Of a DNA stretch of 64,000 bases, positions 1 through 55,066 are shown piece by piece. This DNA is from Yuukianura sp. NJ FZ-2021. Its lineage: Eukaryota. The translations under genes were made by a program, and so were the position numbers. The notes beneath the pieces were generated by a model, which worked only from the letters and a program-made list of their open reading frames with translations, did no database searches and had not been told where the DNA came from. Within the stretch, counting starts at the first letter, position 1. The number at the start of each line of letters is the position of its first letter. The stretch is from positions 1 to 64,000 of the forward strand of contig JAJCTO010000013.1 of NCBI GenBank assembly GCA_046563655.1, written 5' to 3'.

Positions 1-2
1 GA

Positions 3-1013
3 AACCAATTGTGGGGAAGTGGAATTTTGGGGGGAACTGCCAAAAGTAACCGTAACGGAAGTTACGCCAGTGGGGATTAGGGTGTAGAGGAGTCCATAAC
101 CCGGGAAATTCGAGGGCAAAAGTGTGGAAAGGTTATGGGGTGAAGAAATGGTGATGGAGCTGCCGGAATTGGGGGAAACTACGTGGGAAGTGACAGATAG
201 CATGGGAGAAACAGAAGTAGAAGCCGAATTAGAGGAAGTGACTGTAGTTGGGGTAAAAACTGAAGTAGCTGGGGCAGGAATTGAACGAGATGTGGAAGGA
301 ATTGGGGGAAGTGAAGCAGAGGAAGTCGGAATTGGTGGGAAAAGTGGTTGTGGGCGAATTGGTGGGGCAAGTGGACGAATTGGTGGGTTGAGTGGACGTG
401 GGGGGTATGGAGTGGGGCGGGAACTGGAAGATCCAGCTTTGGGGAGTTTTGGTGGGCCATCAGGGAATTTCAAATCCATAAGGGAGGGAACTTTAGAGGC
501 CGCACCTCTCTTAAGGATTGAAGTGGGAACGGTTTTTGAGCCGCTAGGACGGGAATTGGGGTTCAAACAGGATTTGGGGGGAACAACGACGACAGATCGG
601 AGCTTTGGGGTTACAGAAGATGAGGGTGGGGCAGAAACCATCTCTTGGAGGCTACGAAGGGGACCGTGTGCTTGGGTAGAAGAGTGGGGCAGTAGTTGGG
701 GGGTCTTGGGGGGAGTCTTCGGAGGGGCAGGAGAATCCCAATCAACATCGGCAGCGTCCATTGGCGTCGGAGCAGCATTTTGAGCAGGAGTTGATGTAGA
801 CGGAGTTGGTAGTGGCGGAGAGACGACAACAACGGGTGCTGGAAGAGCTGGAGAGGCGATGACAGTGGACGGAGAGGAAGATGACGACGAATCCGAAGAG
901 GAAGGCGAATTCGGAGGTGGTGGAGAGGCTCGTAACAACGCTTCTTCTTCCTCTTTGGCCAAGTCAACTTCAGCAATGCCTTCTTCAGGCCCAAGGTCCA
1001 TCTCCTCGTCCAT
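3..1013 (-). CDS. ORF3 of the retroelement, at least 337 aa and open at the window edge; acidic N-terminus then Pro/Ser/Thr-rich; function unknown
   Basis: Manual translation from ATG 1013 (MDEEMDLGPEEGIAEVDLAKEEEEALLRASPPPPNSPSSS...SSPQNSTSPQLV) has no stop down to base 3. The ATG directly follows a splice acceptor, 33 nt after the pol stop. Absent from the ORF track, probably because it has no stop in the window. Confidence 0.7.
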   Translation of the reverse strand, partial: MDEEMDLGPEEGIAEVDLAKEEEEALLRASPPPPNSPSSSDSSSSSSPSTVIASPALPAPVVVVSPPLPTPSTSTPAQNAAPTPMDAADVDWDSPAPPKTPPKTPQLLPHSSTQAHGPLRSLQEMVSAPPSSSVTPKLRSVVVVPPKSCLNPNSRPSGSKTVPTSILKRGAASKVPSLMDLKFPDGPPKLPKAGSSSSRPTPYPPRPLNPPIRPLAPPIRPQPLFPPIPTSSASLPPIPSTSRSIPAPATSVFTPTTVTSSNSASTSVSPMLSVTSHVVSPNSGSSITISSPHNLSTLLPSNFPGYGLLYTLIPTGVTSVTVTFGSSPQNSTSPQLV

Positions 1014-1046
1014 CTGCAAATAAATAAAAGAACAGTATGAGTAAAA
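1014..1046 (-). promoter_or_regulatory. Putative 3' splice acceptor for a subgenomic ORF3 mRNA
   Basis: Minus strand reads TTTTACTCATACTGTTCTTTTATTTATTTGCAG|ATG: a branch-like TACTCAT, a pyrimidine tract and a terminal CAG. Confidence 0.65.
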
Positions 1047-4000
1047 TTACTCAGTCAGGTGTGCTTTGCGCTGGTATTTTCGCGCTAAACGGAAAGTAGC
1101 TTTAGGGGCAGCAGCGCGTTTTGGGCGATTAGAAATCGGGGGGTTCGTGTTGGCAGGGACACAAACAGCGGGATTTTCGCTAACGACAGGAGGCAGGGGA
1201 TCCTGCGCTTGCGCAATCGATGGAATTGGGATTTCTTGGTCACAACGCGATTCGGGACTTGGAATGACATTATCGGGAGGGTCAGAATTTTGGGGGAGGG
1301 GCGGGTTTGAAGTACTGGGGTCGTTTTGGGGCAATTGGTTCTGTCGTTGGGGTAACTTAATTTGGGTTTGGGGCAGGAAATTTCTGGCGACGGCTGGTTC
1401 GGAAACGACGGGAGGGGGCTCAAAATCGCTGTCACACGACTCGTAAGTGGAGGAACTACTTTCCGCTGACGCAGAGGAGCTTTCCTCACGCGCCTTATAG
1501 GGTTTTAAACGCTGGATATTGACAACTGTCTCGTAGGGCTTATGGGGGACAAGGGAAGTGATACGAACGGTGGAGTTTGCGTAGACTTCTAGGATTTTGT
1601 AGGGACCATTCCATTTGCGGGTGAACTTTTTGACATGGGACTTTTTCCTTTGGAAATTTCTGACAAGAACTTTCATCCCGACGACGTATTTAGGGTAGTG
1701 GACTTGCGTTTGGGCTTGCGCACGGAGGATTTGTTGTTCTCGAGACAGCTCGTGAGCGACATTATTTGCCTCAAATAAACGATCTAAGTAATCGTCTTGG
1801 GGTAACTCGTCAGGGGGCAAAAGGAAGAGCTTGTCAACAGGAAGAACAGGCTCACGACCGTAAACCAAGAAGTACGCAGAGAAAGTCGTAGTTTTGTGGA
1901 CGGAACAATTCAAGGAGAAGACGGCACGGGGAACGTGGAGGTCCCAATCTTTGTGATTGTCGGAAACAAATTTTGCTATGACGGACTTGACTGTGCCGTT
2001 ATGACGCTCACAAACGCCATTCGACTGGGGATGGTAGGAAGTCGTACTGCGGTGTTCAATGGCGTGGTGTTTACAGAACTCAGCGAATTCTTCCGACTGG
2101 AAAACCGAACCACGATCGGAGAGAAGGATTTTGGGGACTCCGTGTCGGTAGAGGACATGTTTCGTCAGGACCTTGATGGCGTGAGCAGAAGTTGCTGCGG
2201 GGACTGGCCAGGCTTCCACGTAGCGGGTGTGGAGGTCAACAATGGTCAAGATGTACGTGTTTCTTCTCGCCGTGAGGGGGAAGGGGCCAATGTAGTCCAG
2301 CGCTAGGGATTGGAAGGGGACAGAGGGAACGTCTAGTCCGACGCTATTTGGGGGTAGGGGGAAGTACCGACGATTGTGGATCTGGCATTCGTGACACGAA
2401 TTGACGTATTTTACAACGTCACGGTACATCCGAGGCCAGTAGAAGCGTGAACGGAGTATATGCCAAGTTTTGTGGAGTCCGAGGTGACTTAGGGAGTCTG
2501 TATGGGCCGATTCCATTGTGGATTTTCTAAGGGACTTAGGAAGAACTAAACGCCACAAGTTACCAAACTCGGAATAATTAATTCTGTATAAAACACCATT
2601 TCGTAGGCTATACTCACGTACGTGTTTCGGCTCTTTAAGGGAATGTTGTTTACCAGACTGCTCGGCTTTAAGATACTCGATTATCGGTGACCAATCCGGT
2701 TCTTTAAGTTGGAGCTCACGAAGTTTGGTGTCACGGACTCTTCGGGGGGCATCTGGGGAAACGTTGAGCGCCAACAAGTGGTGCTCAATCGCTAAATGGT
2801 CAGTGTCGGAAGGGGCAGGGTCAACGGGGTTACGGGAAAGGGGATCCGCGTCTGTGTGTACTCTTCCGTTTCTGTGTATCACCGTAAAGTCGTAAGGTTG
2901 GAGGGCTAGGGACCAACGGGATATTTGTCCGTACGGATCTTTAAATTTTAGCATGTTACAGAGGGAATGGTGGTCTGTAACAACTTTAAAGTGTCTTCCG
3001 TAGAGATAGGGACGGAACTTTTCAACTGCCCAAACGAACGCTTTCATTTCGAGCTGGGGAGTACCAAATTTGGATTCGGAGGGGGAAAGGGCACGGGACG
3101 CATAGGCGACAACTCTTTCTTGTCCATCTTGCATCTGGGTCAACGTAGCACCAAAACCAAGTCCTGACGCATCGCAATGAACTGCTGTCTCCGCTTCCTC
3201 ATCAGGAAACGCTAAGACAGGGGCTGAGGTCAACTTGTCTTTGAGGGTTTGGAAAGCTTCTTCAGCTTCTGGGGGCCAAGTAAAGGGGTCAGTTCGGGTT
3301 TTTGCGCAGAGGACATGGAGGGGACGGGCAATGTTCGCAAAGTTCTCTACAAATCTGCGGTAGTAACTACACAGACTCACGAATGATCTTACACCTCGGG
3401 AATTTTTGGGAGTGGGAAACTCTCGAACTGCGTGGGTTTTGGCGGGGTCAACGGAAATTCCGTCGCGGGAAATTATGTGGCCAAGGAATTTCAGGGAATC
3501 TTCTCCAAAATTGCACTTCTTCGGCTTTAGACTGAGTCCAGCACGTCGAAGGCAGGAGAAGACTTGGGAAAGGTGGTCAAGGTGCTCCTCAAATGTCCGG
3601 GAAAAACAGGTAATGTCGTCAAGGTAGATTAGGGCAACTGTCCATTTTAAACGTCCCAAGACATTGTCTATGAGACGCTGCCAAGTACTGGGGGCATTAC
3701 ACAGACCAAAGGGCATGACGACAAACTCATATTGTCCGTCGGGGGTTACAAAACTTGTCTTTTCGCGATCTTGGGGGTCAACCTCGATTTGGTAGTAGGC
3801 TTGGTCGCAGTCCATGGAAGAGAAGTACTTGGCGCCATTGAGACGATCTAGGGTGTCGTCTATTCGGGGGAGGGGGTAGGAGTCTTTTCGGGTAACTTCG
3901 TTAAGTTTTCGGAAATCCACGCAGAACCTCCAGCTATTGTCTGGCTTCTTAACCAGAAGGACGGGGGAACACCAGGGACTGTCACTAGGGGTTATCGCTC

Positions 4001-6257
4001 CAAGGTCTAGAAGTCTTTCAACTTCTTTCTGGATTTCACGTCTTTCAGTGAAACCAGTTCTGTGGGGATGGGTACGAATGGGAGGGGCATCTCCAGTGTC
4101 TATTTTGTGGGTAACAAGATGAGTTCGTCCTAGGGTTTTGGGGTCAAAGTTGAAAACATCCATGTTGGAAACAAGGAAATTTTTCATTTTCTCTTGCTGT
4201 TCGGGGGTTAGGGTTTTGGAAATTTGGAACGCATCGATCCGTTTTTGAAGTCTCAGAGCCGTTATTTCGGCATCGTCGTCATCATTGACGACAAAATTAC
4301 AAATCGAATGCGCTGGGAGGGAAGATTGGGAAGATTTGTTATGTACAGGGTCGAATTCGTCAAGGTTACAGATCACAGAGGATTCTGCAAAGGGTTCGAA
4401 GGTGCCAATGGAGATATTTTGTAGTAGTTTGACTGGCCGGTCGCTCAAGTTCCAGAGATAGGTGACTCCAGTGCCATCGTGTAAGTGGGAAATTGAATTT
4501 CCTATGGCGACGTGACGAGCATATTGCAGCTCTTTTCTCGGAGAAATTAGGATATCCCCGGTAAACGGAGTATCTGACCGAACGCTGACGCGTTTCATGG
4601 TCCGTGGATTGATGATATAGGAACGAGCCAACCGGAGAAAGTCAGGCGAAGTGGCACTTTGGGACAAATTGGAATTGTCAACGAAGGATGCTTCAGAGTC
4701 CTGTAGAGTACTGGGGTTGGAAGAATCGGAGTTTTCGGACGAACTCTGGGGTTTGGGCTGACACTTTGGAGACTGTTTGGGGGGTTTGGGCTTTACCTTT
4801 CTGGGTTTGGGGACTGGGGGTTCGGGGGGTGAACTGGAGGGATCTGAACCATCTCTATCCGACGGATCGGACAGAGACAGCTTGTGGAGGGCATTAAATT
4901 CGGACTTCTTGACTAGCACGTACTCATTTCTGAGATCAGTGCATTGGAGTTCACCTCTTACGAGGCGTTCGTTGAGGGGGTCGAGGAGAAGCCGCTCGGA
5001 ACGGAGAAAATCCGAACCGATGACTATGTCGTTAGACAAATGGGGGAAAATATGGAAGGGATATTTGAAGGGGACGCCAGCAATGGAGAATTCAATGTCG
5101 ACTGATTGGAGGGAATCGCATGGAATGTAACTTCCAAAAGACAGCTTAACCCTTACGGGTTGAACATTGTTCACATTGGAAACAACGCTGGGGAATTTGG
5201 ACAGAAAACTGGGATGGACACAACAGAGCGAAGCTCCGCTATCGCAAAGGACAGGGATGGTGGTTGAGGCAAAGACAACGTCAATGTGGAATGTGGAATA
5301 CTTTGGGGCATTGAGGGCGGCTATTACATTCGCGGCGGAAACACCACAGGGCAGTTCGGAGTCTGGGTCTGGGGACATTGGGGCTTGGGGCGGAAATACT
5401 GGGGAAACTGCGTCTGCGTCTGGACTGGCTGTAGCAACCCAATCATCAACTCGGCTCACATTGTTCGGATGGATCCCAAATCTGGAGGTCAACGAAAATT
5501 CGGGGCAGGGAGGGGGCATAACGACTGGGGGGTTCAATGGGGGGAAAACACAAAGGTCAGAAGTACCAATGGCTACGGAAACGACAGGCTTTACGGAAAC
5601 TTCGGAAGGCACACAACGGGATTTGGGTCTGGAAACGGCGGGAAAATCCTGTGGAGAGGTTTGAGGTGCCTCCCCAACGACTAAGGGTAAAGTACGGTCA
5701 TTGTGGGGACAACATTTGGGACAGGACACTTTTTGGTTTAGGGCTTGTTGGAGTTTGTTGTACAACTCTTGGGGAATGAGTGGACTCTGAGAACTAGGCT
5801 TTCTGCCAAAAGCCGACAAGTTCTTATAAATGGGGAAAGTTGGTTGTTTGTTTTTTCGTCTTTTGGTTCTTAATTGGGCATTATTTGGTGGTAAGGTCAT
5901 AGTAGGGGTGGGGACTGGAAGCGGCTGTCGTCCCTGCAACGACAGCGCTATTAGTTTTCCGGGGGTTTGGGAACGATGGCGTCTCCAATTTTCTTGAGTA
6001 GATCCGTCATGGCTGAAAAGCCTTGGATAATCCTGGGACCCCAATGGTCGTCTGGGTTCTGGGGGTTTGGAGCAGTTTGTGGGGCTTGGGAGGGTCCAGG
6101 GGATGGTTTGTAAACCACAGAAGTCTGGGGGGCAACAACCTGAGCATAGGACACAGGCTGCTGTGGGAACTGACCATAACCTTGCGGCTGTGTGGGACGG
6201 GGTTTGAGGGGGTGACATCCGTTGGCGAGGGGATCCTTGCCTTGGCTTCTCCACCAA
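1047..6257 (-). CDS. pol: Pol polyprotein (aspartic protease, reverse transcriptase, RNase H, DDE integrase); probably entered by -1 frameshift near 5957
   Basis: Protease LCDSGASL (~5235). RT WRFCVDFRKLN, MPFGLCNAP and YLDD (3615-3626). RNase H HCDASG..E..VVTDH..DADPLSR. Integrase H-H-C-C zinc motif, LALDYIGP / LLSDRG / SNGVCERHN triad and WNGPY. Uninterrupted 1736-codon frame. Confidence 0.97.
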   Translation of the reverse strand: MVEKPRQGSPRQRMSPPQTPSHTAARLWSVPTAACVLCSGCCPPDFCGLQTIPWTLPSPTNCSKPPEPRRPLGSQDYPRLFSHDGSTQENWRRHRSQTPGKLIALSLQGRQPLPVPTPTMTLPPNNAQLRTKRRKNKQPTFPIYKNLSAFGRKPSSQSPLIPQELYNKLQQALNQKVSCPKCCPHNDRTLPLVVGEAPQTSPQDFPAVSRPKSRCVPSEVSVKPVVSVAIGTSDLCVFPPLNPPVVMPPPCPEFSLTSRFGIHPNNVSRVDDWVATASPDADAVSPVFPPQAPMSPDPDSELPCGVSAANVIAALNAPKYSTFHIDVVFASTTIPVLCDSGASLCCVHPSFLSKFPSVVSNVNNVQPVRVKLSFGSYIPCDSLQSVDIEFSIAGVPFKYPFHIFPHLSNDIVIGSDFLRSERLLLDPLNERLVRGELQCTDLRNEYVLVKKSEFNALHKLSLSDPSDRDGSDPSSSPPEPPVPKPRKVKPKPPKQSPKCQPKPQSSSENSDSSNPSTLQDSEASFVDNSNLSQSATSPDFLRLARSYIINPRTMKRVSVRSDTPFTGDILISPRKELQYARHVAIGNSISHLHDGTGVTYLWNLSDRPVKLLQNISIGTFEPFAESSVICNLDEFDPVHNKSSQSSLPAHSICNFVVNDDDDAEITALRLQKRIDAFQISKTLTPEQQEKMKNFLVSNMDVFNFDPKTLGRTHLVTHKIDTGDAPPIRTHPHRTGFTERREIQKEVERLLDLGAITPSDSPWCSPVLLVKKPDNSWRFCVDFRKLNEVTRKDSYPLPRIDDTLDRLNGAKYFSSMDCDQAYYQIEVDPQDREKTSFVTPDGQYEFVVMPFGLCNAPSTWQRLIDNVLGRLKWTVALIYLDDITCFSRTFEEHLDHLSQVFSCLRRAGLSLKPKKCNFGEDSLKFLGHIISRDGISVDPAKTHAVREFPTPKNSRGVRSFVSLCSYYRRFVENFANIARPLHVLCAKTRTDPFTWPPEAEEAFQTLKDKLTSAPVLAFPDEEAETAVHCDASGLGFGATLTQMQDGQERVVAYASRALSPSESKFGTPQLEMKAFVWAVEKFRPYLYGRHFKVVTDHHSLCNMLKFKDPYGQISRWSLALQPYDFTVIHRNGRVHTDADPLSRNPVDPAPSDTDHLAIEHHLLALNVSPDAPRRVRDTKLRELQLKEPDWSPIIEYLKAEQSGKQHSLKEPKHVREYSLRNGVLYRINYSEFGNLWRLVLPKSLRKSTMESAHTDSLSHLGLHKTWHILRSRFYWPRMYRDVVKYVNSCHECQIHNRRYFPLPPNSVGLDVPSVPFQSLALDYIGPFPLTARRNTYILTIVDLHTRYVEAWPVPAATSAHAIKVLTKHVLYRHGVPKILLSDRGSVFQSEEFAEFCKHHAIEHRSTTSYHPQSNGVCERHNGTVKSVIAKFVSDNHKDWDLHVPRAVFSLNCSVHKTTTFSAYFLVYGREPVLPVDKLFLLPPDELPQDDYLDRLFEANNVAHELSREQQILRAQAQTQVHYPKYVVGMKVLVRNFQRKKSHVKKFTRKWNGPYKILEVYANSTVRITSLVPHKPYETVVNIQRLKPYKAREESSSASAESSSSTYESCDSDFEPPPVVSEPAVARNFLPQTQIKLPQRQNQLPQNDPSTSNPPLPQNSDPPDNVIPSPESRCDQEIPIPSIAQAQDPLPPVVSENPAVCVPANTNPPISNRPKRAAAPKATFRLARKYQRKAHLTE
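5920..5960 (-). promoter_or_regulatory. Putative -1 programmed ribosomal frameshift signal (slippery site plus stem-loop)
   Basis: G_GAA_AAC (5960-5954) lies immediately before the gag stop TAA and is followed by a GCTGTCGT/ACGACAGC stem with a 7-nt loop. Pol is in the -1 frame relative to gag. Confidence 0.65.
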
Positions 6258-7317
6258 TTGTGGCAGTAACGCTGGATATGGCCTGTGCGACTACAAAAGT
6301 CGCAAATCGGACGTCCATCTTCTGCACGTCTACGTTGTGGCTGTGTCTGTCCGGCTGCTTGTGCTGCGGGAAGTAGGGCTTGGGCTTGGTACTGAGAGAC
6401 TGGCTGCTGTACTGGGAACTGGGGAGCTGGTAGTGTACCAACTGGGGGGTAATAGGGCTGAGGAGGGGGATTATTTCCAGATTCAAGGGCATGGAGGGAA
6501 AGTACTTGGGATGATATGTCTTTGGGGCGGGTATGAACTTCTGCGACTCTGCGCAGAAGCTTTTGGAAATCAGCAGAAGTGGGAATCGACTGGAGTACGA
6601 AAGACTGTTCCAAGTCTGGGGGTAACCCACGAACGAGGCGCTTGACCTTGGATTCTTCGCTCATGTAGGGGTTGATTTTGGACATGAGTTCCAGTTTTTC
6701 TGCGACGTACTTGTCGATGTTGTCACCCAGTTTTACCGTAGGGCTTTGTTCATGTTACGGAGTTCTTCTGCTCGTTCTCGTAGGGAAAAGTGGGCAACAA
6801 ATCGGGTTTCGAAATCATTCCAAATTTCTTCGGCATCAGCGTTGGTAGCTTCCAGTCGTGCTCGAAAGCTTGGCCACACGGAGGCAAACCACGATTGAGC
6901 AACTCCGGTTACCACACGGTCGAAATGGCAAAGGGCTCCTTTGGGACCAAACCCAGAGTCGGCTAGATCGTACATGTAGCGGGCTAGGAATTCTGCGGGA
7001 TCTGTCGTGCCATCGTATTGTCGGATGTATTTGAATACTTTGATGTCAGGGCGACGATCGTTTGGATTGGGCTGAGCTTGGGTTTGGGGCGGGGGTACTA
7101 TGTGTGGTACATTGGGGGGACTTCCTGCTGGTCTTGGGGACGCAAGTGGGGTAGGGGTTACTGGACGGGGAATACTCGTGGGAACAGGGATTGAAGTACC
7201 CTGGGTAGCAGGGGCTGGGACTGGAATGGGAAACGAGCCAGTGTTTGTTTGACTGTTTCGTCTTTGGTGGGGCTGGGGTGCAATCTCTGGGGCATAGCGC
7301 GTAGCGAACCACGGCAT
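5951..7317 (-). pseudogene. gag: gag of copy 1, split by a 1-nt deletion at ~6733 (real mutation or sequencing error)
   Basis: ORFs 6733-7317 and 5951-6685 match the two ends of the intact 455-aa Gag of copy 2. Copy 1 has cccagttttaccg where copies 2 and 3 have cccagtttgtaccg. CX2CX4HX4C knuckle CDFCSRTGHIQRYC. Confidence 0.9.
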
Positions 7318-7332
7318 TTTGAGGGGGGGGGG

Positions 7333-7707
7333 TTAATACTCGTCAATGACAAGCAATCCTTGGTAACGGGCAAAGATGACTAGGAGGGTTCTGTACCAGG
7401 GACCGAAGAAACTCCAATGGTAGTGGTTGAGCCGGACAATAAGGGCAATGTAGTAGTAGGCTTCGGTATAGGGTAGAACGTTAAGGAAGATCCGGTATTC
7501 GTTTGGGTGTTGTCGTAGCCGGTAAATGGGGAATAGGTGGAGTACGGAAAAGTCAAAGACTGTGGCTAGGATTCCGTAAAAACAACTTTTAGTTGCTGAG
7601 GTTAGGAGGTAGTAGGAGAAAACAATGAGATGAGCACCCAAATAGATGCCAATTAGGGACAGGACAAGGATTACGGATAGTCTCAACCAGTAGAGAAAGT
7701 TCCACAT
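7333..7707 (-). CDS. Leader small ORF, 124 aa, hydrophobic putative membrane protein
   Basis: ATG start, N-terminal hydrophobic stretch LSVILVLSLIGIYLGAHLIVFSYYLL, stop 15 nt before the gag ATG. Intact in all three copies. Confidence 0.55.
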   Translation of the reverse strand: MWNFLYWLRLSVILVLSLIGIYLGAHLIVFSYYLLTSATKSCFYGILATVFDFSVLHLFPIYRLRQHPNEYRIFLNVLPYTEAYYYIALIVRLNHYHWSFFGPWYRTLLVIFARYQGLLVIDEY

Positions 7708-7758
7708 GGGTGGGGGTTCAGGGGCGGGGGGTTTTCAACAGTTACTTGAAGTAACTTG

Positions 7759-7878
7759 CTATTGGGGGAACAGCCGTCTCAGTTGTCGGAGGAGGAATCG
7801 TTCCAAAATGGTTCGTAGGACTTCGTAGACGACAATGAGTACCAGGACCAGAGTTAGCCACACGATCGTTTCAATCAT
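7759..7878 (-). CDS. Leader small ORF, 39 aa, predicted single-pass membrane peptide with Arg-rich tail
   Basis: Manual translation MIETIVWLTLVLVLIVVYEVLRTILERFLLRQLRRLFPQ*. The ATG is 21 nt downstream of a CTAAT...TTTCAG acceptor. Confidence 0.55.
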   Translation of the reverse strand: MIETIVWLTLVLVLIVVYEVLRTILERFLLRQLRRLFPQ

Positions 7879-7899
7879 TCGGGGAGCGGGGATACTTTT

Positions 7900-7920
7900 C
7901 TGAAATATAGGGATAATTAG
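7900..7920 (-). promoter_or_regulatory. Putative splice acceptor in the retroelement leader
   Basis: Minus strand CTAATTATCCCTATATTTCAG|AAAAG (branch-like CTAAT plus TTTCAG), at the end of an AT-rich intron-like stretch. Confidence 0.5.
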
Positions 7921-8070
7921 AATATGGACAAAAAAATAATTGGTTTCTTAATTAGGGGACTAAATTATTTTTAAATTTAAATACCAAAACCTAGAAACAA
8001 AAGAAAAATTATTAAAGAAACGAAGATGGGCTATGGGGCTATGGTTTGTACCAAATTCCACCAAAACCTT

Positions 8071-8205
8071 TTAAATCCGATGAAGAATGAGCCAAAAACA
8101 CGCGAAAACCAAAAGTGCAGTAGTCACTTTGGCTAACGAGAGCCAAACCAACACACCGCAAAACCAAAGAAAGAATTCAACCAAAAGAGGGGAGGGTTGA
8201 ACCAT
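8071..8205 (-). CDS. Leader small ORF, 44 aa from ATG, very hydrophobic (tentative)
   Basis: MVQPSPLLVEFFLWFCGVLVWLSLAKVTTALLVFACFWLILHRI*. Intact in all copies, but lies in T-rich sequence that would bias codons toward hydrophobic residues. Confidence 0.3.
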   Translation of the reverse strand: MVQPSPLLVEFFLWFCGVLVWLSLAKVTTALLVFACFWLILHRI

Positions 8206-9035
8206 AACACACCGACTTTGGGAAAATTTGGGGTGGGTAGGGGCTTTCGGATTCAAAAATCCGAGAAATCCGAAGAATTCCGACGATTAGGTAGGGTACT
8301 GCAACGTGGGGATATGCGAAATCGCAATAGGGGAATTATCCGATGAGTCTGGGGAATGGTCGCACCTGGTTGCGTCCAAGTCGCAAGTGGCTGCGATCGG
8401 CGCCGACTGTGGAGTTGGATGTGGCAGTTGGGGGGATACTCGGTGGGACTAGGGAGATAAATCGCTAAGTGTTTTAGTTTTTGGGAAAATCGGGCAGCGT
8501 TTTGGTACGAAGTGAGGGAATTCCAAATTGGGTTATGTTTCAATAGGGGGGGGGGCGAAGGGGCGGAGAAACAAATTGAAAAACTTGCTAAGTTTTGGGA
8601 ATTGGGAAAAATTTGGGCAGAGTTCTGTTACGGGGTGAGGGAAAGCCAATTTAGGTACTGTTCAGTGGGGGGGAATACAAAATTTTTGAAAAATCGGCAA
8701 AGTATTTGAAATTTTAGAAAATTTTGGACAGGGGTTTGTTTAGGGATTTAGAATTTCAATTTAAGGTAAGGTTCAGGGAAGGGAAGGTCACTTGGAGGAG
8801 AGTAAATGACTTTATGTGGTAGTGGGACTACTTTTGGACTTTGGTGGGGCTGGTGGGGACGAAAAACGCTAAGTTTTTAAATTTTGAAAAAAATTTGCGC
8901 GGGGGAGGGTTAGGGAAAGCGATTTAGCGCAAAAAATGGGGTCACTTTAAGGGAGTAGGGGGATAAACGCCGGGGGGTGGGGCGCTACAACGCAACAAAA
9001 CAACAACCTGACCTTTGATTTGACCTTGGTGGCTC

Positions 9036-9130
9036 TTCGGTGGCTCAGTAGTCGCTCGGAGGGCGGTTGTTCAGAAGAAAGTCGGTGGCTCAGAAGACAA
9101 TCGGTGGCTCAGAAGACAAATCGGTGGCTC
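9036..9130. repeat. Short direct repeats (TCGGTGGCTC[AGAAGACAA]) in the leader
   Basis: TCGGTGGCTC occurs four times, the last three at 19-20 bp spacing. Confidence 0.8.
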
Positions 9131-9257
9131 TCGCTTCTTTGGCTCAAAAGTTTGGAGGACGGAGGAGCTGAAAAAAATCGAAAAAACAATGAAACAAAAG
9201 GACAAAAATTATGCTAAAAAACAAAATTTAAATTAGGGGGGGGGATATTCTGGTGGG

Positions 9258-9910
9258 TGTGAGGGAATTTGAGGTCAAAGGTCAAGGAAAGCCCGTCTGA
9301 GGCCCCACTTAAGAGGAGGTAGACTCCTCAACGGGCCGCCGTGCAGGCACCCGGAATGATGGGTCAATGAACGGGTCACGAGAGTGACCCGGAACAATAA
9401 ATCAGACGTGGAGTGGGCGGATAATGGGGAAAACAAAGTAACCTTACGTTTATTTGCAAATAATCAATGAAAAAACGAAAAAGAACCAAATGGTGGGCTG
9501 TCCAGGGCTTGGTGGGTCTTGTCCAGTGCTTGGTGGGTCTTGTCCAGTGCTTTGTGGGTCTTGTCCAGAGCGGCGTGGCAGCCAAAGATGGCGGACGGAA
9601 AAGTTGGAGTGGAGAGACGTGGATCCGAACTGGACAACTGGCAGCCGAAGACTGAGGAGGAAGTGGGACATGGGATTCTGCCTGTTCACAGGCAGAAAGT
9701 TCTCGAATCTTCTCGAAGGTGCTTTGGGGGATTCGGGAAGGGGGAAAACACACGGCGGAGTGGGAAAAACGCCTTGTCATGTTCCTTTGCAGGAGCATGG
9801 CAAGGGCTAGTGGGGGAAAATACTGGACTTGGGGAGGAGTCTTGGTTTCATTAGAAACCAAGACTAAAAAGAAATGATTTTCAGACGGGAGAGGGAGTAA
9901 CCTCCTCACA
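9258..9910 (-). repeat. Putative 5' LTR, 653 bp
   Basis: Terminal inverted repeat TGTGAGG...CCTCACA, minus-strand AATAAA at 9454-9449, and an abrupt junction to satellite at 9910. The inner boundary is inferred only from the inverted repeat because the partner LTR is outside the window. Confidence 0.7.
9491..9568. repeat. 21-bp tandem repeat inside the LTR (~3.5 copies)
   Basis: Unit GCTTGGTGGGTCTTGTCCAGT repeated head-to-tail. Confidence 0.85.
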
Positions 9911-22200: not shown

Positions 22201-22220
22201 AAACAATTCCACTACAGTAA
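16290..22220. repeat. Satellite B array 1: 15 monomers (405/407 bp, two internally deleted 268-bp) plus one partial
   Basis: ATTGCATATAAAAAACTAGTGTC... recurs with periods of 405, 407 and 268 bp. Confidence 0.98.
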
Positions 22221-24340
22221 TTGAGACGATCTAGGGTGTCGTCTATTCGGGGGAGGGGGTAGGAGTCTTTTCGGGTAACTTCGTTAAGTTTTCGGAAATC
22301 CACGCAGAACCTCCAGCTATTGTCTGGCTTCTTAACCAGAAGGACGGGGGAACACCAGGGACTGTCACTAGGGGTTATCGCTCCAAGGTCTAGAAGTCTT
22401 TCAACTTCTTTCTGGATTTCACGTCTTTCAGTGAAACCAGTTCTGTGGGGATGGGTACGAATGGGAGGGGCATCTCCAGTGTCTATTTTGTGGGTAACAA
22501 GATGAGTTCGTCCTAGGGTTTTGGGGTCAAAGTTGAAAACATCCATGTTGGAAACAAGGAAATTTTTCATTTTCTCTTGCTGTTCGGGGGTTAGGGTTTT
22601 GGAAATTTGGAACGCATCGATCCGTTTTTGAAGTCTCAGAGCCGTTATTTCGGCATCGTCGTCATCATTGACGACAAAATTACAAATCGAATGCGCTGGG
22701 AGGGAAGATTGGGAAGATTTGTTATGTACAGGGTCGAATTCGTCAAGGTTACAGATCACAGAGGATTCTGCAAAGGGTTCGAAGGTGCCAATGGAGATAT
22801 TTTGTAGTAGTTTGACTGGCCGGTCGCTCAAGTTCCAGAGATAGGTGACTCCAGTGCCATCGTGTAAGTGGGAAATTGAATTTCCTATGGCGACGTGACG
22901 AGCATATTGCAGCTCTTTTCTCGGAGAAATTAGGATATCCCCGGTAAACGGAGTATCTGACCGAACGCTGACGCGTTTCATGGTCCGTGGATTGATGATA
23001 TAGGAACGAGCCAACCGGAGAAAGTCAGGCGAAGTGGCACTTTGGGACAAATTGGAATTGTCAACGAAGGATGCTTCAGAGTCCTGTAGAGTACTGGGGT
23101 TGGAAGAATCGGAGTTTTCGGACGAACTCTGGGGTTTGGGCTTACACTTTGGAGACTGTTTGGGGGGTTTGGGCTTTACCTTTCTGGGTTTGGGGACTGG
23201 GGGTTCGGGGGGTGAACTGGAGGGATCTGAACCATCTCTATCCGACGGATCGGACAGAGACAGCTTGTGGAGGGCATTAAATTCGGACTTCTTGACTAGC
23301 ACGTACTCATTTCTGAGATCAGTGCATTGGAGTTCACCTCTTACGAGGCGTTCGTTGAGGGGGTCGAGGAGAAGCCGCTCGGAACGGAGAAAATCCGAAC
23401 CGATGACTATGTCGTTAGACAAATGGGGAAAATATGGAAGGGATATTTGAAGGGGACGCCAGCAATGGAGAATTCAATGTCGACTGATTGGAGGGAATCG
23501 CATGGAATGTAACTTCCAAAAGACAGCTTAACCCTTACGGGTTGAACATTGTTCACATTGGAAACAACGCTGGGGAATTTGGACAGAAAACTGGGATGGA
23601 CACAACAGAGCGAAGCTCCGCTATCGCAAAGGACAGGGATAGTGGTTGAGGCAAAGACAACGTCAATGTGGAATGTGGAATACTTTGGGGCATTGAGGGC
23701 GGCTATTACATTCGCGGCGGAAACACCACAGGGCAGTTCGGAGTCTGGGTCTGGGGACATTGGGGCTTGGGGCGGAAATACTGGGGAAACTGCGTCTGCG
23801 TCTGGACTGGCTGTAGCAACCCAATCATCAACTCGGCTCACATTGTTCGGATGGATCCCAAATCTGGAGGTCAACGAAAATTCGGGGCAGGGAGGGGGCA
23901 TAACGACTGGGGGTTCAATGGGGGGAAAACACAAAGGTCAGAAGTACCAATGGCTACGGAAACGACAGGCTTTACGGAAACTTCGGAAGGCACACAACGG
24001 GATTTGGGTCTGGAAACGGCGGGAAAATCCTGTGGAGAGGTTTGAGGTGCCTCCCCAACGACTAAGGGTAAAGTACGGTCATTGTGGGGACAACATTTGG
24101 GACAGGACACTTTTTGGTTTAGGGCTTGTTGGAGTTTGTTGTACAACTCTTGGGGAATGAGTGGACTCTGAGAACTAGGCTTTCTGCCAAAAGCCGACAA
24201 GTTCTTATAAATGGGGAAAGTTGGTTGTTTGTTTTTTCGTCTTTTGGTTCTTAATTGGGCATTATTTGGTGGTAAGGTCATAGTAGGGGTGGGGACTGGA
24301 AGCGGCTGTCGTCCCTGCAACGACAGCGCTATTAGTTTTC
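22220..24340 (-). pseudogene. pol: Truncated, frameshifted pol (protease and RT N-terminus only)
   Basis: G-run frameshifts at ~23910 and ~23425; ends at ..LPRIDDTLDRLN before the RT catalytic motifs. Confidence 0.92.
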
Positions 24341-25699
24341 CGGGGGTTTGGGAACGATGGCGTCTCCAATTTTCTTGAGTAGATCCGTCATGGCTGAAAA
24401 GCCTTGGATAATCCTGGGACCCCAATGGTCGTCTGGGTTCTGGGGGTTTGGAGCAGTTTGTGGGGCTTGGGAGGGTCCAGGGGATGGTTTGTAAACCACA
24501 GAAGTCTGGGGGGCAACAACCTGAGCATAGGACACAGGCTGCTGTGGGAACTGACCATAACCTTGCGGCTGTGTGGGACGGGGTTTGAGGGGGTGACATC
24601 CGTTGGCGAGGGGATCCTTGCCTTGGCTTCTCCACCAATTGTGGCAGTAACGCTGGATATGGCCTGTGCGACTACAAAAGTCGCAAATCGGACGTCCATC
24701 TTCTGCACGTCTACGTTGTGGCTGTGTCTGTCCGGCTGCTTGTGCTGCGGGAAGTAGGGCTTGGGCTTGGTACTGAGAGACTGGCTGCTGTACTGGGAAC
24801 TGGGGAGCTGGTAGTGTACCAACTGGGGGGTAATAGGGCTGAGGAGGGGGATTATTTCCAGATTCAAGGGCATGGAGGGAAAGTACTTGGGATGATATGT
24901 CTTTGGGGCGGGTATGAACTTCTGCGACTCTGCGCAGAAGCTTTTGGAAATCAGCAGAAGTGGGAATCGACTGGAGTACGAAAGACTGTTCCAAGTCTGG
25001 GGGTAACCCACGAACGAGGCGCTTGACCTTGGATTCTTCGCTCATGTAGGGGTTGATTTTGGACATGAGTTCCAGTTTTTCTGCGACGTACTTGTCGATG
25101 TTGTCACCCAGTTTGTACCGTAGGGCTTTGTTCATGTTACGGAGTTCTTCTGCTCGTTCTCGTAGGGAAAAGTGGGCAACAAATCGGGTTTCGAAATCAT
25201 TCCAAATTTCTTCGGCATCAGCGTTGGTAGCTTCCAGTCGTGCTCGAAAGCTTGGCCACACGGAGGCAAACCACGATTGAGCAACTCCGGTTACCACACG
25301 GTCGAAATGGCAAAGGGCTCCTTTGGGACCAAACCCAGAGTCGGCTAGATCGTACATGTAGCGGGCTAGGAATTCTGCGGGATCTGTCGTGCCATCGTAT
25401 TGTCGGATGTATTTGAATACTTTGATGTCAGGGCGACGATCGTTTGGATTGGGCTGAGCTTGGGTTTGGGGCGGGGGTACTATGTGTGGTACATTGGGGG
25501 GACTTCCTGCTGGTCTTGGGGACGCAAGTGGGGTAGGGGTTACTGGACGGGGAATACTCGTGGGAACAGGGATTGAAGTACCCTGGGTAGCAGGGGCTGG
25601 GACTGGAATGGGAAACGAGCCAGTGTTTGTTTGACTGTTTCGTCTTTGGTGGGGCTGGGGTGCAATCTCTGGGGCATAGCGCGTAGCGAACCACGGCAT
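24332..25699 (-). CDS. gag: Gag, 455 aa, intact reading frame
   Basis: CAAAATG start context, Pro-rich N-terminus, capsid-like IRQYDGTTDPAEFLARY..AQSWF segment and a CCHC knuckle. Confidence 0.92.
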   Translation of the reverse strand: MPWFATRYAPEIAPQPHQRRNSQTNTGSFPIPVPAPATQGTSIPVPTSIPRPVTPTPLASPRPAGSPPNVPHIVPPPQTQAQPNPNDRRPDIKVFKYIRQYDGTTDPAEFLARYMYDLADSGFGPKGALCHFDRVVTGVAQSWFASVWPSFRARLEATNADAEEIWNDFETRFVAHFSLRERAEELRNMNKALRYKLGDNIDKYVAEKLELMSKINPYMSEESKVKRLVRGLPPDLEQSFVLQSIPTSADFQKLLRRVAEVHTRPKDISSQVLSLHALESGNNPPPQPYYPPVGTLPAPQFPVQQPVSQYQAQALLPAAQAAGQTQPQRRRAEDGRPICDFCSRTGHIQRYCHNWWRSQGKDPLANGCHPLKPRPTQPQGYGQFPQQPVSYAQVVAPQTSVVYKPSPGPSQAPQTAPNPQNPDDHWGPRIIQGFSAMTDLLKKIGDAIVPKPPEN

Positions 25700-25716
25700 T
25701 TTGAGGGCGGGGGGGG

Positions 25717-26091
25717 TTAATACTCGTCAATGACAAGCAATCCTTGGTAACGGGCAAAGATGACTAGGAGGGTTCTGTACCAGGGACCGAAGAAACTCCA
25801 ATGGTAGTGGTTGAGCCGGACAATAAGGGCAATGTAGTAGTAGGCTTCGGTATAGGGTAGAACGTTAAGGAAGATCCGGTATTCGTTTGGGTGTTGTCGT
25901 AGCCGGTAAATGGGGAATAGGTGGAGTACGGAAAAGTCAAAGACTGTGGCTAGGATTCCGTAAAAACAACTTTTAGTTGCTGAGGTTAGGAGGTAGTAGG
26001 AGAAAACAATGAGATGAGCACCCAAATAGATGCCAATTAGGGACAGGACAAGGATTACGGATAGTCTCAACCAGTAGAGAAAGTTCCACAT
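25717..26091 (-). CDS. Leader small ORF 124 aa (copy 2)
   Basis: Identical protein to 7333-7707. Confidence 0.55.
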   Translation of the reverse strand: MWNFLYWLRLSVILVLSLIGIYLGAHLIVFSYYLLTSATKSCFYGILATVFDFSVLHLFPIYRLRQHPNEYRIFLNVLPYTEAYYYIALIVRLNHYHWSFFGPWYRTLLVIFARYQGLLVIDEY

Positions 26092-26142
26092 GGGTGGGGG
26101 TTCAGGGGCGGGGGGTTTTCAACAGTTACTTGAAGTAACTTG

Positions 26143-26262
26143 CTATTGGGGGAACAGCCGTCTCAGTTGTCGGAGGAGGAATCGTTCCAAAATGGTTCGT
26201 AGGACTTCGTAGACGACAATGAGTACCAGGACCAGAGTTAGCCACACGATCGTTTCAATCAT
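26143..26262 (-). CDS. Leader small ORF 39 aa (copy 2)
   Basis: Identical to 7759-7878. Confidence 0.5.
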   Translation of the reverse strand: MIETIVWLTLVLVLIVVYEVLRTILERFLLRQLRRLFPQ

Positions 26263-27639
26263 TCGGGGAGCGGGGATACTTTTCTGAAATATAGGGATAA
26301 TTAGAATATGGACAAAAAAATAATTGGTTTCTTAATTAGGGGACTAAATTATTTTTAAATTTAAATACCAAAACCTAGAAACAAAAGAAAAATTATTAAA
26401 GAAACGAAGATGGGCTATGGGGCTATGGTTTGTACCAAATTCCACCAAAACCTTTTAAATCCGATGAAGAATGAGCCAAAAACACGCGAAAACCAAAAGT
26501 GCAGTAGTCACTTTGGCTAACGAGAGCCAAACCAACACACCGCAAAACCAAAGAAAGAATTCAACCAAAAGAGGGGAGGGTTGAACCATAACACACCGAC
26601 TTTGGGAAAATTTGGGGTGGGTAGGGGCTTTCGGATTCAAAAATCCGAGAAATCCGAAGAATTCCGACGATTAGGTAGGGTACTGCGACGTGGGGATATG
26701 CGAAATCGCAATAGGGGAATTATCCGATGAGTCTGGGGAATGGTCGCACCTGGTTGCGTCCAAGTCGCAAGTGGCTGCGATCGGCGCCGACTGTGGAGTT
26801 GGATGTGGCAGTTGGGGGGATACTCGGTGGGACTAGGGAGATAAATCGCTAAGTGTTTTAGTTTTTGGGAAAATCGGGCAGCGTTTTGGTACGAAGTGAG
26901 GGAATTCCAAATTGGGTTATGTTTCAATAGGGGGGGGGGCGAAGGGGCGGAGAAACAAATTGAAAAACTTGCTAAGTTTTGGGAATTGGGAAAAATTTGG
27001 GCAGAGTTCTGTTACGGGGTGAGGGAAAGCCAATTTAGGTACTGTTCAGTGGGGATACAAAATTTTTGAAAAATCGGCAAAGTATTTGAAATTTTAGAAA
27101 ATTTTGGACAGGGGTTTGTTTAGGGATTTAGAATTTCAATTTAAGGTAAGGTTCAGGGAAGGGAAGGTCACTTGGAGGAGAGTAAATGACTTTACGTGGT
27201 AGTGGGACTACTTTTGGACTTTGGTGGGACGGGTGGGGACGAAAAAACGCTAAGTTTTTAAATTTTGAAAAAATTTTTGCGCGGGGGAGGTTTAGGGAAC
27301 GCGATTTAGCGCAAGAAATGGGGTCACTTTAAGGGACTGGGGGGATAAACGCCGGGAGGTGGGGCGCTACAACGCAACAAAACAACAACCTGACCTTTGA
27401 TTTGACCTTGGTGGCTCTTCGGTGGCTCAGTAGTCGCTCGGAGGGCGGTTGTTCAGAAGAAAGTCGGTGGCTCAGAAGACAATCGGTGGCTCAGAAGACA
27501 AATCGGTGGCTCTCGCTTCTTTGGCTCAAAAGTTTGGAGGACGGAGGAGCTGAAAATAATCGAAAAAACAATGAAACAAAAGGACAAAAATTATGCTAAA
27601 AAACAAAATTTAAATTAGGGGGGGGGATATTCTGGTGGG

Positions 27640-40504: not shown

Positions 40505-40518
40505 TTTGAGGGGGGGGG

Positions 40519-40893
40519 CTAATACTCGTCAATGACAAGCAATCCTTGGTAACGGGCAAAGATGACTAGGAGGGTTCTGTACCAGGGACCGAAGAAACTC
40601 CAATGGTAGTGGTTGAGCCGGACAATAAGGGCAATGTAGTAGTAGGCTTCGGTATAGGGTAGAACGTTAAGGAAGATCCGGTATTCGTTTGGGTGTTGTC
40701 GTAGCCGGTAAATGGGGAATAGGTGGAGTACGGAAAAGTCAAAGACTGTGGCTAGGATTCCGTAAAAACAACTTTTAGTTGCTGAGGTTAGGAGGTAGTA
40801 GGAGAAAACAATGAGATGAGCACCCAAATAGATGCCAATTAGGGACAGGACAAGGATTACGGATAGTCTCAACCAGTAGAGAAAGTTCCACAT
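40519..40893 (-). CDS. Leader small ORF 124 aa (copy 3)
   Basis: Identical protein; the stop is TAG here versus TAA in copies 1 and 2. Confidence 0.55.
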   Translation of the reverse strand: MWNFLYWLRLSVILVLSLIGIYLGAHLIVFSYYLLTSATKSCFYGILATVFDFSVLHLFPIYRLRQHPNEYRIFLNVLPYTEAYYYIALIVRLNHYHWSFFGPWYRTLLVIFARYQGLLVIDEY

Positions 40894-40944
40894 GGGTGGG
40901 GGTTCAGGGGCGGGGGGTTTTCAACAGTTACTTGAAGTAACTTG

Positions 40945-41064
40945 CTATTGGGGGAACAGCCGTCTCAGTTGTCGGAGGAGGAATCGTTCCAAAATGGTTC
41001 GTAGGACTTCGTAGACGACAATGAGTACCAGGACCAGAGTTAGCCACACGATCGTTTCAATCAT
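40945..41064 (-). CDS. Leader small ORF 39 aa (copy 3)
   Basis: Identical to 7759-7878. Confidence 0.5.
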   Translation of the reverse strand: MIETIVWLTLVLVLIVVYEVLRTILERFLLRQLRRLFPQ

Positions 41065-42437
41065 TCGGGGGAGCGGGGATACTTTTCTGAAATATAGGGA
41101 TAATTAGAATATGGACAAAAAAATAATTGGTTTCTTAATTAGGGGACTAAATTATTTTTAAATTTAAATACCAAAACCTAGAAACAAAAGAAAAATTATT
41201 AAAGAAACGAAGATGGGCTATGGGGCTATGGTTTGTACCAAATTCCACCAAAACCTTTTAAATCCGATGAAGAATGAGCCAAAAACACGCGAAAACCAAA
41301 AGTGCAGTAGTCACTTTGGCTAACGAGAGCCAAACCAACACACCGCAAAACCAAAGAAAGAATTCAACCAAAAGAGGGGAGGGTTGAACCATAACACACC
41401 GACTTTGGGAAAATTTGGGGTGGGTAGGGGCTTTCGGATTCAAAAATCCGAGAAATCCGAAGAATTCCGACGATTAGGTAGGGTACTGCGACGTGGGGAT
41501 ATGCGAAATCGCAATAGGGGAATTATCCGATGAGTCTGGGGAATGGTCGCACCTGGTTGCGTCCAAGTCGCAAGTGGCTGCGATCGGCGCCGACTGTGGA
41601 GTTGGATGTGGCAGTTGGGGGGATACTCGGTGGGACTAGGGAGATAAATCGCTAAGTGTTTTAGTTTTTGGGAAAATCGGGCAGCGTTTTGGTACGAAGT
41701 GAGGGAATTCCAAATTGGGTTATGTTTCAATAGGGGGGGGGCGAAGGGGCGGAGAAACAAATTGAAAAACTTGCTAAGTTTTGGGAATTGGGAAAAATTT
41801 GGGCAGAGTTCTGTTACGGGGTGAGGGAAAGCCAATTTAGGTACTGTTCAGTGGGGGGGGGATACAAAATTTTTGAAAAATCGGCAAAGTATTTGAAATT
41901 TTAGAAAATTTTGGACAGGGGTTTGTTTAGGGATTTAGAATTTCAATTTAAGGTAAGGTTCAGGGAAGGGAAGGTCACTTGGAGGAGAGTAAATGACTTT
42001 ATGTGGTAGTGGGACTACTTTTGGACTTTGGTGGGGCTGGTGGGGACGAAAAACGCTAAGTTTTTAAATTTTGAAAAAATTTGCGCGGGGAGGGTTAGGG
42101 AAAGCGATTTAGCGCAAAAAATGGGGTCACTTTAAGGGAGTAGGGGGATAAACGCCGGGGGGTGGGGCGCTACAACGCAACAAAACAACAACCTGACCTT
42201 TGATTTGACCTTGGTGGCTCTTCGGTGGCTCAGTAGTCGCTCGGAGGGCGGTTGTTCAGAAGAAAGTCGGTGGCTCAGAAGACAATCGGTGGCTCAGAAG
42301 ACAAATCGGTGGCTCTCGCTTCTTTGGCTCAAAAGTTTGGAGGACGGAGGAGCTGAAAAAATCGAAAAAACAATGAAACAAAAGGACAAAAATTATGCTA
42401 AAAAACAAAATTTAAATTAGGGGGATATTCTGGTGGG

Positions 42438-55000: not shown

Positions 55001-55066
55001 AACAAGTGCATAAATCTAACTGTCATTTTGGTATAAACTAATGTGCGAACTATACAACGAAGTTTT
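43091..55066. repeat. Satellite A array 3: 23 full monomers plus one partial
   Basis: 509-bp periodicity with the same boundary phase. Confidence 0.98.

Follow-up and report, generated by a model that had tools for sequence, protein, structure and literature searches.

The closest described systems are the insect retrotransposons of the MDG1 group (412, mdg1, Stalker, Blood and Tabor), in which a pair of short open reading frames (ORFs), sORF1 and sORF2, precede gag and are both translated from unspliced RNA (10.1101/2025.03.14.642691). In the accessible sections of that report, by Voichek et al., which underlie what is said here of these elements and of reovirus proteins, sORF1 is a nuclear helix-turn-helix protein of about 110 amino acids (aa), and sORF2 is a FAST-like single-pass membrane protein of about 70 aa at follicle-cell protrusions, with capsids entering the oocyte, that mediates soma-to-oocyte transfer of the env-less MDG1-group elements (10.1101/2025.03.14.642691). 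The same sections give 105 sORF2/FAST-like candidates in insect Gypsy consensus sequences, recognised by a length of 60-210 aa, a single N-out/C-in transmembrane domain, an ectodomain of 10-50 aa with MGxxxS/T, and at least three K/R within 15 residues after the transmembrane domain (10.1101/2025.03.14.642691). The reovirus FAST proteins themselves (p10, p13, p14 and p15) are described there as single-pass, N-out proteins of 80-200 aa with an ectodomain of ~30 residues carrying a fatty-acid/hydrophobic patch (10.1101/2025.03.14.642691), and the accessible portion of a 2026 PNAS article reports that sORF2 is conserved across drosophilids (PMC13486581). Here we compare with these systems a Ty3/Gypsy long terminal repeat (LTR) retrotransposon with additional sense ORFs upstream of gag, situated in a 64,000-nucleotide (nt) stretch of DNA from Yuukianura sp. 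NJ FZ-2021 (assembly GCA_046563655.1, contig JAJCTO010000013.1, positions 1 to 64,000 of the forward strand), hereafter the window.

Three consecutive sense ORFs of 44, 39 and 124 aa, called from ATG starts with the standard code, lie on the minus strand between the 5' LTR and gag, just as the sequence-only reading of this DNA had described, and the last of them ends 15 nt before the gag ATG at 7317, again in agreement with it. The leader is arranged as follows:

8206..9258, minus strand: upstream leader, with no ATG in any sense frame (7.2 ± 2.3 in shuffles)
8071..8205, minus strand: ORF-A, 44 aa, opened by the first ATG after the LTR in the context tgtgttATGg, with G at -3 and +4
7879..8070, minus strand: A-B spacer, AT-rich and without ATG
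7759..7878, minus strand: ORF-B, 39 aa, with the weak start context ccccgaATGa
7708..7758, minus strand: B-C spacer, C-rich
7333..7707, minus strand: ORF-C, 124 aa, with the weak start context ccacccATGt, Tyr-rich (15 Tyr)

We propose, with moderate confidence, that this is a polycistronic leader purged of AUGs that would express at least two small membrane proteins before gag, with a membrane-associated accessory role. The first line of evidence is the distribution of start codons. Across 2353 nt of sense strand (9670-7318) only three ATGs occur, compared with 19.6 ± 3.7 in dinucleotide shuffles, of which 0/2000 had three or fewer (shuffle minimum 7). After the last ATG within the 5' LTR, at 9671, the sense ATGs fall at 8205, 7878, 7707 and 7317, which are the starts of ORF-A, ORF-B, ORF-C and gag and no others, and the same three-ATG pattern is found in all three copies of this region in the window. 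In the same sense strand each of the other orderings of A, T and G is found 15-29 times, its antisense strand holds 34 ATGs, and gag/pol has 11-12 ATGs per kb. The ORF bodies are themselves without internal ATG in any frame (for ORF-C the probability of zero is 0.025), and ORFs as long as these (at least 39, 44 and 124 codons) arise from three start positions drawn at random in the leader with P of about 0.001.

The second line of evidence concerns composition, by which ORF-B and ORF-C are more than chance reading frames. The grand average of hydropathy (GRAVY) of ORF-B is 1.10, against -0.22 ± 0.36 in dinucleotide shuffles (reached in 0/2000) and -0.92 and -0.91 in its other two frames, and that of ORF-C is 0.67, against 0.23 ± 0.20 (P=0.0145) and 0.03 and 0.04. 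For ORF-A the corresponding values are 1.60, against 1.05 ± 0.30 (P=0.027), and 0.66 and 0.78. Of the three ORFs, earlier described as strongly hydrophobic throughout, ORF-B and ORF-C exceed what T-richness yields in the shuffles, and ORF-A is very hydrophobic but T-rich at all three codon positions, its hydrophobicity being largely compositional. Period-3 composition gave chi2 values of 29.7 for ORF-B and 30.3 for ORF-C, each reached by 0/3000 shuffles and by no window of the upstream leader, with gag1 (23.1) as the positive control. No such signal was present in ORF-A (3.3, P=0.79), in the A-B spacer (5.5) or in a stop-free 124-codon stretch without ATG in another frame (8256-8627, minus strand; 6.1), which served as a negative control for ORF length. 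At third codon positions the composition of ORF-C (C 0.46, G 0.10) is similar to that of pol (C 0.36, G 0.15). ORF-A is probably a translated upstream ORF (uORF) rather than a selected protein. By Kyte-Doolittle windows, ORF-B has a 4-residue N-terminus, one predicted helix at ~residues 5-20 with Tyr18 at its end, and an Arg-rich, amphipathic tail with five Arg in residues 22-35 (R22, R27, R31, R34 and R35); ORF-C has hydrophobic segments at ~residues 8-35, 43-60 and 106-119, and ORF-A has one hydrophobic stretch of ~34 residues.

For ORF-C a third line of evidence is a homolog. A phmmer search of ORF-C against 1.84 billion protein representatives returned exactly one match (E 5.6e-6), a 112-aa protein from a soil protein catalogue, hereafter P0001, with 36% identity over ORF-C residues 4-104; BLASTP aligned the two at 41% identity and 63% positives over 71 aa. 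Their Smith-Waterman score of 153 compares with 41.8 ± 7.4 for shuffled sequences (z=15), and z is 10 when the shuffling is done in blocks so that the hydrophobic pattern is preserved. Conserved positions include C42, D52, P60, R63, R65, E82, Y84-86, R92 and H97. P0001 ends about 20 residues before the end of ORF-C and, like it, is without internal Met. Since a stop codon results from about 4.9% of all single substitutions in ORF-C, the persistence of an open 112-codon relative at 36-41% identity argues for selection on the ORF-C protein, and the alignment places ORF-C and P0001 together in a small, unnamed candidate protein family.

Diverged copies of the element were compared in public runs X1-X3 (same organism, one sample) and X4 (a second organism), which together contain many copies at 80-99% identity; a search of public sequencing runs listed no RNA run with the element. 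Among the listed pieces, three cross ORF-C with 0 gaps at 86-89% identity, and the gap-free listed pieces cover 7239-7713 (67 differences), 7395-7652 (32) and 7489-7680 (21); the six listed pieces from the upstream leader have 2-18 gaps each. Six of the 12 indel rows listed, at five places, fall inside 7333-8205, and all of these lie in the 243 nt of spacer, at 7880 (twice), 7930 and 7985 between ORF-A and ORF-B and at 7718 and 7725 between ORF-B and ORF-C, with 0 in the 630 nt of ORF. Most genomic copies have the extra base at 7880. In gag, differences among genomic copies are spaced by three. As a separate observation, contigs of run X1 join over 6922-7337 and 6986-7326, leaving out 414 and 339 nt, in place of which stand 3 and 11 other letters, from which it follows that in some genomic copies the Pro-rich N-terminus of gag and the region of the ORF-C stop are missing.

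Within the window the cluster is present in three copies, the one set out above (copy 1) and two more:

25717..26589, minus strand: ORF cluster of copy 2, encoding identical proteins from starts at 26589, 26262 and 26091 (ORF-A, ORF-B and ORF-C), with the ORFs out of gag's frame
40519..41392, minus strand: ORF cluster of copy 3, encoding identical proteins from starts at 41392, 41064 and 40893, with TAG rather than TAA as the ORF-C stop and ORF-A in a frame that differs from that of ORF-B and ORF-C

A self-comparison of the window showed that 3837-16286 is repeated at 22220-34670 (99.69%) and 37027-49469 (99.62%), and the three copies are segmental duplicates, not independent insertions. The copies differ at 1 position in the 630 nt of the ORFs and at 9 in 3434 nt of gag/pol (Fisher P=1.0). 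Because the copies are segmental duplicates with equal difference rates, the intactness of the ORFs across them carries no weight for selection. The sequence-only reading had noted that all three ORFs remain intact while gag/pol carry frameshifts, which is literally true but uninformative on selection: 6/7 of the frame-changing gag/pol differences lie within runs of 5-6 C and may be slippage or assembly error, the exception being the copy-1 gag break near 6733. Its caution that the copies are too similar to demonstrate selection was well placed.

Like the MDG1-group elements, the element is of Gypsy type and apparently env-less, and has small sense ORFs between LTR and gag that would be carried on unspliced genomic RNA; as with sORF2, at least one of these is a small transmembrane protein, here by prediction. 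ORF-B further resembles sORF2 in that Tyr closes its predicted helix and the tail that comes next is polybasic and amphipathic. There are three leader ORFs here and two in the MDG1 group, ORF-B has 39 aa compared with 63-107 aa for sORF2, and ORF-C, with its several hydrophobic helices, has no counterpart in the accessible sections of Voichek et al. The leader ORFs are probably a variation on the sORF-before-gag arrangement already known in the MDG1 group. The reovirus FAST proteins are, as is predicted for the leader ORFs, small membrane proteins encoded by an element that forms capsids and has no envelope, and their polybasic juxtamembrane region is matched in ORF-B only; unlike FAST proteins, all three ORFs are essentially without an ectodomain and ORF-C, by its several hydrophobic segments, appears not to be single-pass.

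Two further comparisons bear on expression and on function. ORFs I-III of rice tungro bacilliform virus are translated polycistronically, by leaky scanning through upstream ORFs free of AUGs. As in that virus, the long 5' region of the element contains no AUGs other than those that open its consecutive ORFs, and upstream ORFs with weak start contexts and AUG-free interiors would leave the major ORF behind them within reach; unlike it, the start context of ORF-A is good, which points to reinitiation rather than pure leaky scanning for the first step of a mechanism that is here deduced from sequence alone. Viroporins, small membrane proteins of viruses, are grouped by function, namely oligomeric channel activity, and not by sequence. 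The ORFs of the leader resemble them in size (39-124 aa), in having one to few hydrophobic helices and in their adjacent basic residues.

Under the proposed polycistronic reading, the ~2.3 kb from the last ATG of the LTR to gag would be the 5' stretch that ribosomes scan on the unspliced genomic RNA. Transcription would start probably between about 9670 and 9455, in which case the AUG of ORF-A would be the first on the RNA. Purging of AUGs from the leader would allow ribosomes to reach gag, with each of the three AUGs that were kept opening a small ORF. ORF-A, having the first AUG in a good context, would probably be translated as a plain uORF, after which scanning would resume. ORF-B, with one transmembrane helix and an Arg-rich amphipathic tail, and ORF-C, Tyr-rich and with several helices, would be true small membrane proteins of the element, made before gag through leaky scanning or reinitiation; leaky scanning is in keeping with the pyrimidine that each has at -3 and with the absence of further AUGs, in whatever frame, from the two ORFs. 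At membranes both proteins may assist the element's cycle, in assembling particles or in passage from cell to cell, a role analogous and not homologous to that of MDG1 sORF2. We infer the mode of translation, the membrane insertion and the accessory role alike. If ORF-B and ORF-C are expressed and membrane-active, the sORF concept would extend to proteins that are not FAST-like, and the element would illustrate cleanly, in nature, how a retrotransposon can be translated polycistronically. As a case that bears on how general the sORF transfer strategy is and how many protein solutions it has, the element offers a concrete second candidate architecture.

A number of observations weigh against this reading, beginning with the relatives of the element. 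Twenty-three metagenome contigs encode relatives of its reverse transcriptase (RT) at 38-70% identity, and only two of these continue far beyond gag on its upstream side, L007 (65% RT identity) for 976 nt and L008 (60%) for 982 nt. Neither upstream region contains an ORF-C-like frame or a sense ORF of at least 35 aa, and a tblastn search of their sense strands with ORF-A, ORF-B, ORF-C and P0001, a check on diverged relatives that the sequence-only reading had recommended, gave no match. The only sense ORF of at least 30 aa there, at 493-597 of L007, encodes 34 hydrophobic aa, with no tblastn match to any of the three leader ORFs. The leader of L008 is ATG-poor as well (3 vs about 17 expected) and lacks the ORFs, which means that an AUG purge can exist without such genes. 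Either a narrower branch of the lineage has the ORF cluster, or P0001 is a trace of an older gene of patchy distribution. The comparison of genomic copies covers the listed rows, beyond which there are a further 53 indels, 514 substitutions and 685 pieces, and the pieces without indels may represent one subfamily, X1-X3 being one sample.

Other such points come from database searches and from the ORFs themselves. P0001 is the single homolog found for ORF-C: a word-index protein search with ORF-C among proteins of near length gave no match, the same kind of search with a profile of ORF-C and P0001 gave P0001 alone at near lengths and no protein at greater lengths, and the ORF-C plus P0001 profile detected no relatives in metagenome, viral or prokaryote-genome contigs. 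Pfam gave no family above threshold for ORF-A, ORF-B, ORF-C or P0001, a PDB sequence search with the profile gave 0 matches at E<=1, and the ESM Atlas contained no usable match to ORF-C. The AlphaFold2 model of ORF-C, built from a two-sequence alignment and consisting of two long helices, is of low confidence (predicted local distance difference test score 68.5, predicted template modelling score 0.37), and Foldseek found 0 matches to it in the PDB. The longest ORF in shuffles of the whole leader is at least 124 aa with P=0.086 (0.017 when only 7318-8260 is shuffled) and the leader does contain a second 124-codon stop-free stretch (8627-8256), making ORF length alone weak evidence. Period-3 composition and hydrophobicity are partly one signal, T at codon position 2, the ORFs had been selected for hydrophobicity beforehand, and the hydrophobic segments were assigned by Kyte-Doolittle windows alone. 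ORF-A shows no coding signal, its good start context would reduce ribosome flow to ORF-B, ORF-C and gag, and ribosomes would be expected to reinitiate poorly once they have translated 124 codons.

None of the three ORFs, finally, shows the full set of sORF2/FAST-like features as given in the accessible sections of the report by Voichek et al. ORF-C (124 aa) lies in the 60-210 aa range and ORF-A (44 aa) and ORF-B (39 aa) lie below it. In Kyte-Doolittle profiles ORF-B has one helix, ORF-A one stretch and ORF-C at least three hydrophobic segments. The N-termini (MVQPSP in ORF-A, MIETIV in ORF-B and MWNFLY in ORF-C) are without MGxxxS/T, and the hydrophobic segments begin by residue 4-8, leaving ectodomains of only 4-7 residues. 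A polybasic stretch is found in ORF-B only, ORF-A having one R after its hydrophobic stretch and ORF-C one K in the 15 residues after its first helix. The idea, put forward in the sequence-only reading, of a module for envelope-independent transmission has a precedent in the published MDG1 sORF2, but the proteins themselves do not have the full set of features of that class. A role as fusogen or in transmission is a lead by analogy and appears improbable.

Among the alternatives, the first, which we consider unlikely, is that the three AUGs are kept as regulatory uORFs that throttle or time gag/pol translation, the peptides being functionless and their hydrophobicity incidental. An AUG-purged leader indicates that translation control clearly matters, and L008 shows the purge without long ORFs. 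ORF-A, short, compositionally hydrophobic, with a strong start context and no period-3 signal, fits such a role, and the ORF-C stop lies 14-17 nt before the gag AUG across the three copies. Regulatory uORFs need no conserved protein, however, yet ORF-C matches P0001 across heavy divergence with polar residues kept, the period-3 composition of ORF-B and ORF-C is as strong as that of gag, and the listed indels avoid the ORF bodies. At 124 codons ORF-C would also be long for a regulatory uORF. If the ORFs were merely regulatory, the AUG purge would still document strong selection on gag translation from a very long leader.

Quite unlikely, in our assessment, is a second alternative, according to which a C/T-rich, stop-poor leader yields open frames by chance, T at codon position 2 mimics hydrophobicity, and no selection is involved. 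The whole-leader shuffles, the second stop-free stretch, the largely compositional hydrophobicity of ORF-A and the absence of the ORFs from L007 and L008 are all compatible with it, as is the inability of the window's three copies to show selection. Chance does not readily explain why each of the three ATGs, the sole ones in 2353 nt, should begin a long ORF, or why ORF-B and ORF-C exceed shuffles in both hydrophobicity and period-3 composition when the stretch at 8627-8256 does not; a homolog open over 112 codons at the divergence observed is likewise unlikely under neutrality.

A bolder form of the proposed reading, improbable on present evidence, is that ORF-B, as a minimal transmembrane helix with an Arg-rich tail, and ORF-C, as a conserved Tyr-rich protein with several helices, form a membrane module unrelated in sequence and architecture to sORF2 and FAST proteins that would give an env-less Gypsy lineage envelope-independent, membrane-based particle assembly or transfer between cells, a proposal made by analogy; if it were true, small membrane 'movement' proteins ahead of gag would have arisen more than once, beyond the insect MDG1 group. 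That ORF-C is instead an N-terminal membrane anchor of Gag made by readthrough of its single stop codon is very improbable and largely refuted, in that the shared frame of ORF-A, ORF-B, ORF-C and gag in copy 1 (start coordinates the same mod 3, with one stop and five sense codons between ORF-C and the gag ATG) is an accident of that copy, the ORFs being out of gag's frame in copy 2 and ORF-A differing from ORF-B and ORF-C, and these from gag, in copy 3, while the C-run that separates ORF-C from gag varies in length, most genomic copies have the extra base at 7880, P0001 stops about 20 residues short of the ORF-C end, and a word-index profile search, weak evidence in itself, found no fused ORF-C-Gag among longer proteins.

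The remainder of the element conforms to a Ty3/Gypsy retrotransposon in the order protease, RT, RNase H and integrase:

9910 down past the window start, minus strand: Ty3/Gypsy LTR retrotransposon
9259..9910, minus strand: 5' LTR (approximate), beginning TGTGAGG at 9910 and abutting a 509-bp satellite
7317..5951, minus strand: gag, with the start context ctcaaaATGc (A at -3)
1047..6218, minus strand: pol, 1723 aa, overlapping gag and in the -1 frame relative to it

The 3' LTR lies outside the window and the 3' boundary of the 5' LTR is placed only to about 9258-9310, by which the ~1.9 kb given for the leader in the sequence-only reading is an approximate figure. Inspection by eye found no clear TGG-type primer-binding site. 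AATAAA occurs once in the 9.9 kb of sense strand of the element, within the 5' LTR at 9454-9449; a tandem repeat of 21 bp (x3.8) lies just upstream of it, at 9491-9568 and likewise inside the LTR. The gag of copy 1 is broken into two frames near 6733, and that of copy 2 is an uninterrupted frame of 455 aa (25699..24335) matching Retrotrans_gag in Pfam at 34.1 bits (cutoff 24.1). The CCHC knuckle of gag, CX2CX4HX4C, reads CDFCSRTGHIQRYC. Pfam domains in pol are, in order, RVP_2 at residues 315-417 (weak, E 0.052), RVT_1 at 756-916 (E 4.5e-37), RT_RNaseH/RT_RNaseH_2 at 981-1109, Integrase_H2C2 at 1227-1283 and rve at 1301-1397. The ESM Atlas neighbours of pol are mixed (Arthropoda, Chordata and Streptophyta). 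At the DNA level the nearest relatives of the element are metagenome contigs, with RT identity of up to 70%, and a search with the RT query of viral and prokaryote-genome contigs gave no relatives.

Downstream of pol lies a further gene, also detected in five related metagenome contigs:

3..1013, minus strand: ORF3, truncated by the window start, with 337 aa or more
L002, 5936-6412: ORF3 of a relative
L005, 5958-6446: ORF3 of a relative
L012, 3285-3773: ORF3 of a relative
L003, 4234-4728: ORF3 of a relative
L008, 6690-7367: ORF3 of a relative

ORF3 of the window opens with an acidic motif (EEMEL..SDEE.LL-like), followed by a Ser/Pro-rich stretch, and matches no Pfam family. The acidic N-terminal motif is common to the window and the five contigs, in which ORF3 has 158-225 aa, follows pol and continues through a Ser/Thr/Pro linker to a CCHC-like knuckle and a second Cys cluster at its C-terminal end; the ORF3 of the window is enlarged in comparison and Ser/Pro-rich. 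These features mark ORF3 as a predicted conserved accessory gene of the lineage that does not resemble an envelope protein, and it may be a nucleic-acid-binding or export-type factor. The view that the element is env-less gains from the five relatives, whose acidic, Cys-rich ORF3 is without sign of an envelope, and the lineage as a whole is probably env-less.

Several other features of the leader and its ORFs were noted. The idea that, as in 412, a poly(A) signal among the ORFs might end a short transcript was rejected, AATAAA and ATTAAA being absent throughout the leader. Paralogy among the three ORFs was likewise rejected, their comparisons giving no similarity (z between -0.2 and 1.9), and the best Pfam hit of ORF-B, DUF2109 (E 0.076), is under the cutoff. 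In the A-B spacer (7901-8070, minus strand) there are polypyrimidine-plus-AG motifs that resemble splice acceptors, for instance tatatttcag just upstream of ORF-B. The upstream leader contains degenerate ~110-nt repeats (8440-9260, minus strand) with shared cores spaced 110, 274 and 404 nt apart, and a 19-bp x3.1 repeat at 9071-9130. Binding-site arrays are known from the leaders of some insect Gypsy elements, and by analogy these repeats may constitute such an array. The upstream leader is also the most variable part among the three copies (28 differences in 1104 nt) and varies between genomic copies too. In L007 a 5'-open frame of 87 aa with ordinary protein-like composition (positions 2-265, plus strand) lies upstream of the related element and may belong to a flanking host gene or another mobile element.

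The three copies of the element are embedded in satellite DNA:

9911-16286: 509-bp satellite array
28293-35687: 509-bp satellite array
43091-55066: 509-bp satellite array
16290-22220: 407-bp satellite array
35691-37027: 407-bp satellite array
55070-64000: 407-bp satellite array

The repeated unit is a composite of 407-bp satellite, element (3837-9910) and 509-bp satellite, with 99.4-99.7% identity across the three copies; copies 2 and 3 of the element are truncated within pol, and the 407-bp satellite also has a 268-bp variant. This higher-order repeat resembles a pericentromere-like array in which part of a retrotransposon was first caught and later multiplied. Strand asymmetry is strong over the whole element (1-9910), where the GC skew of the plus strand lies between +0.15 and +0.46, the sense strand being C-rich and G-poor, and the skew changes sign in the satellites.

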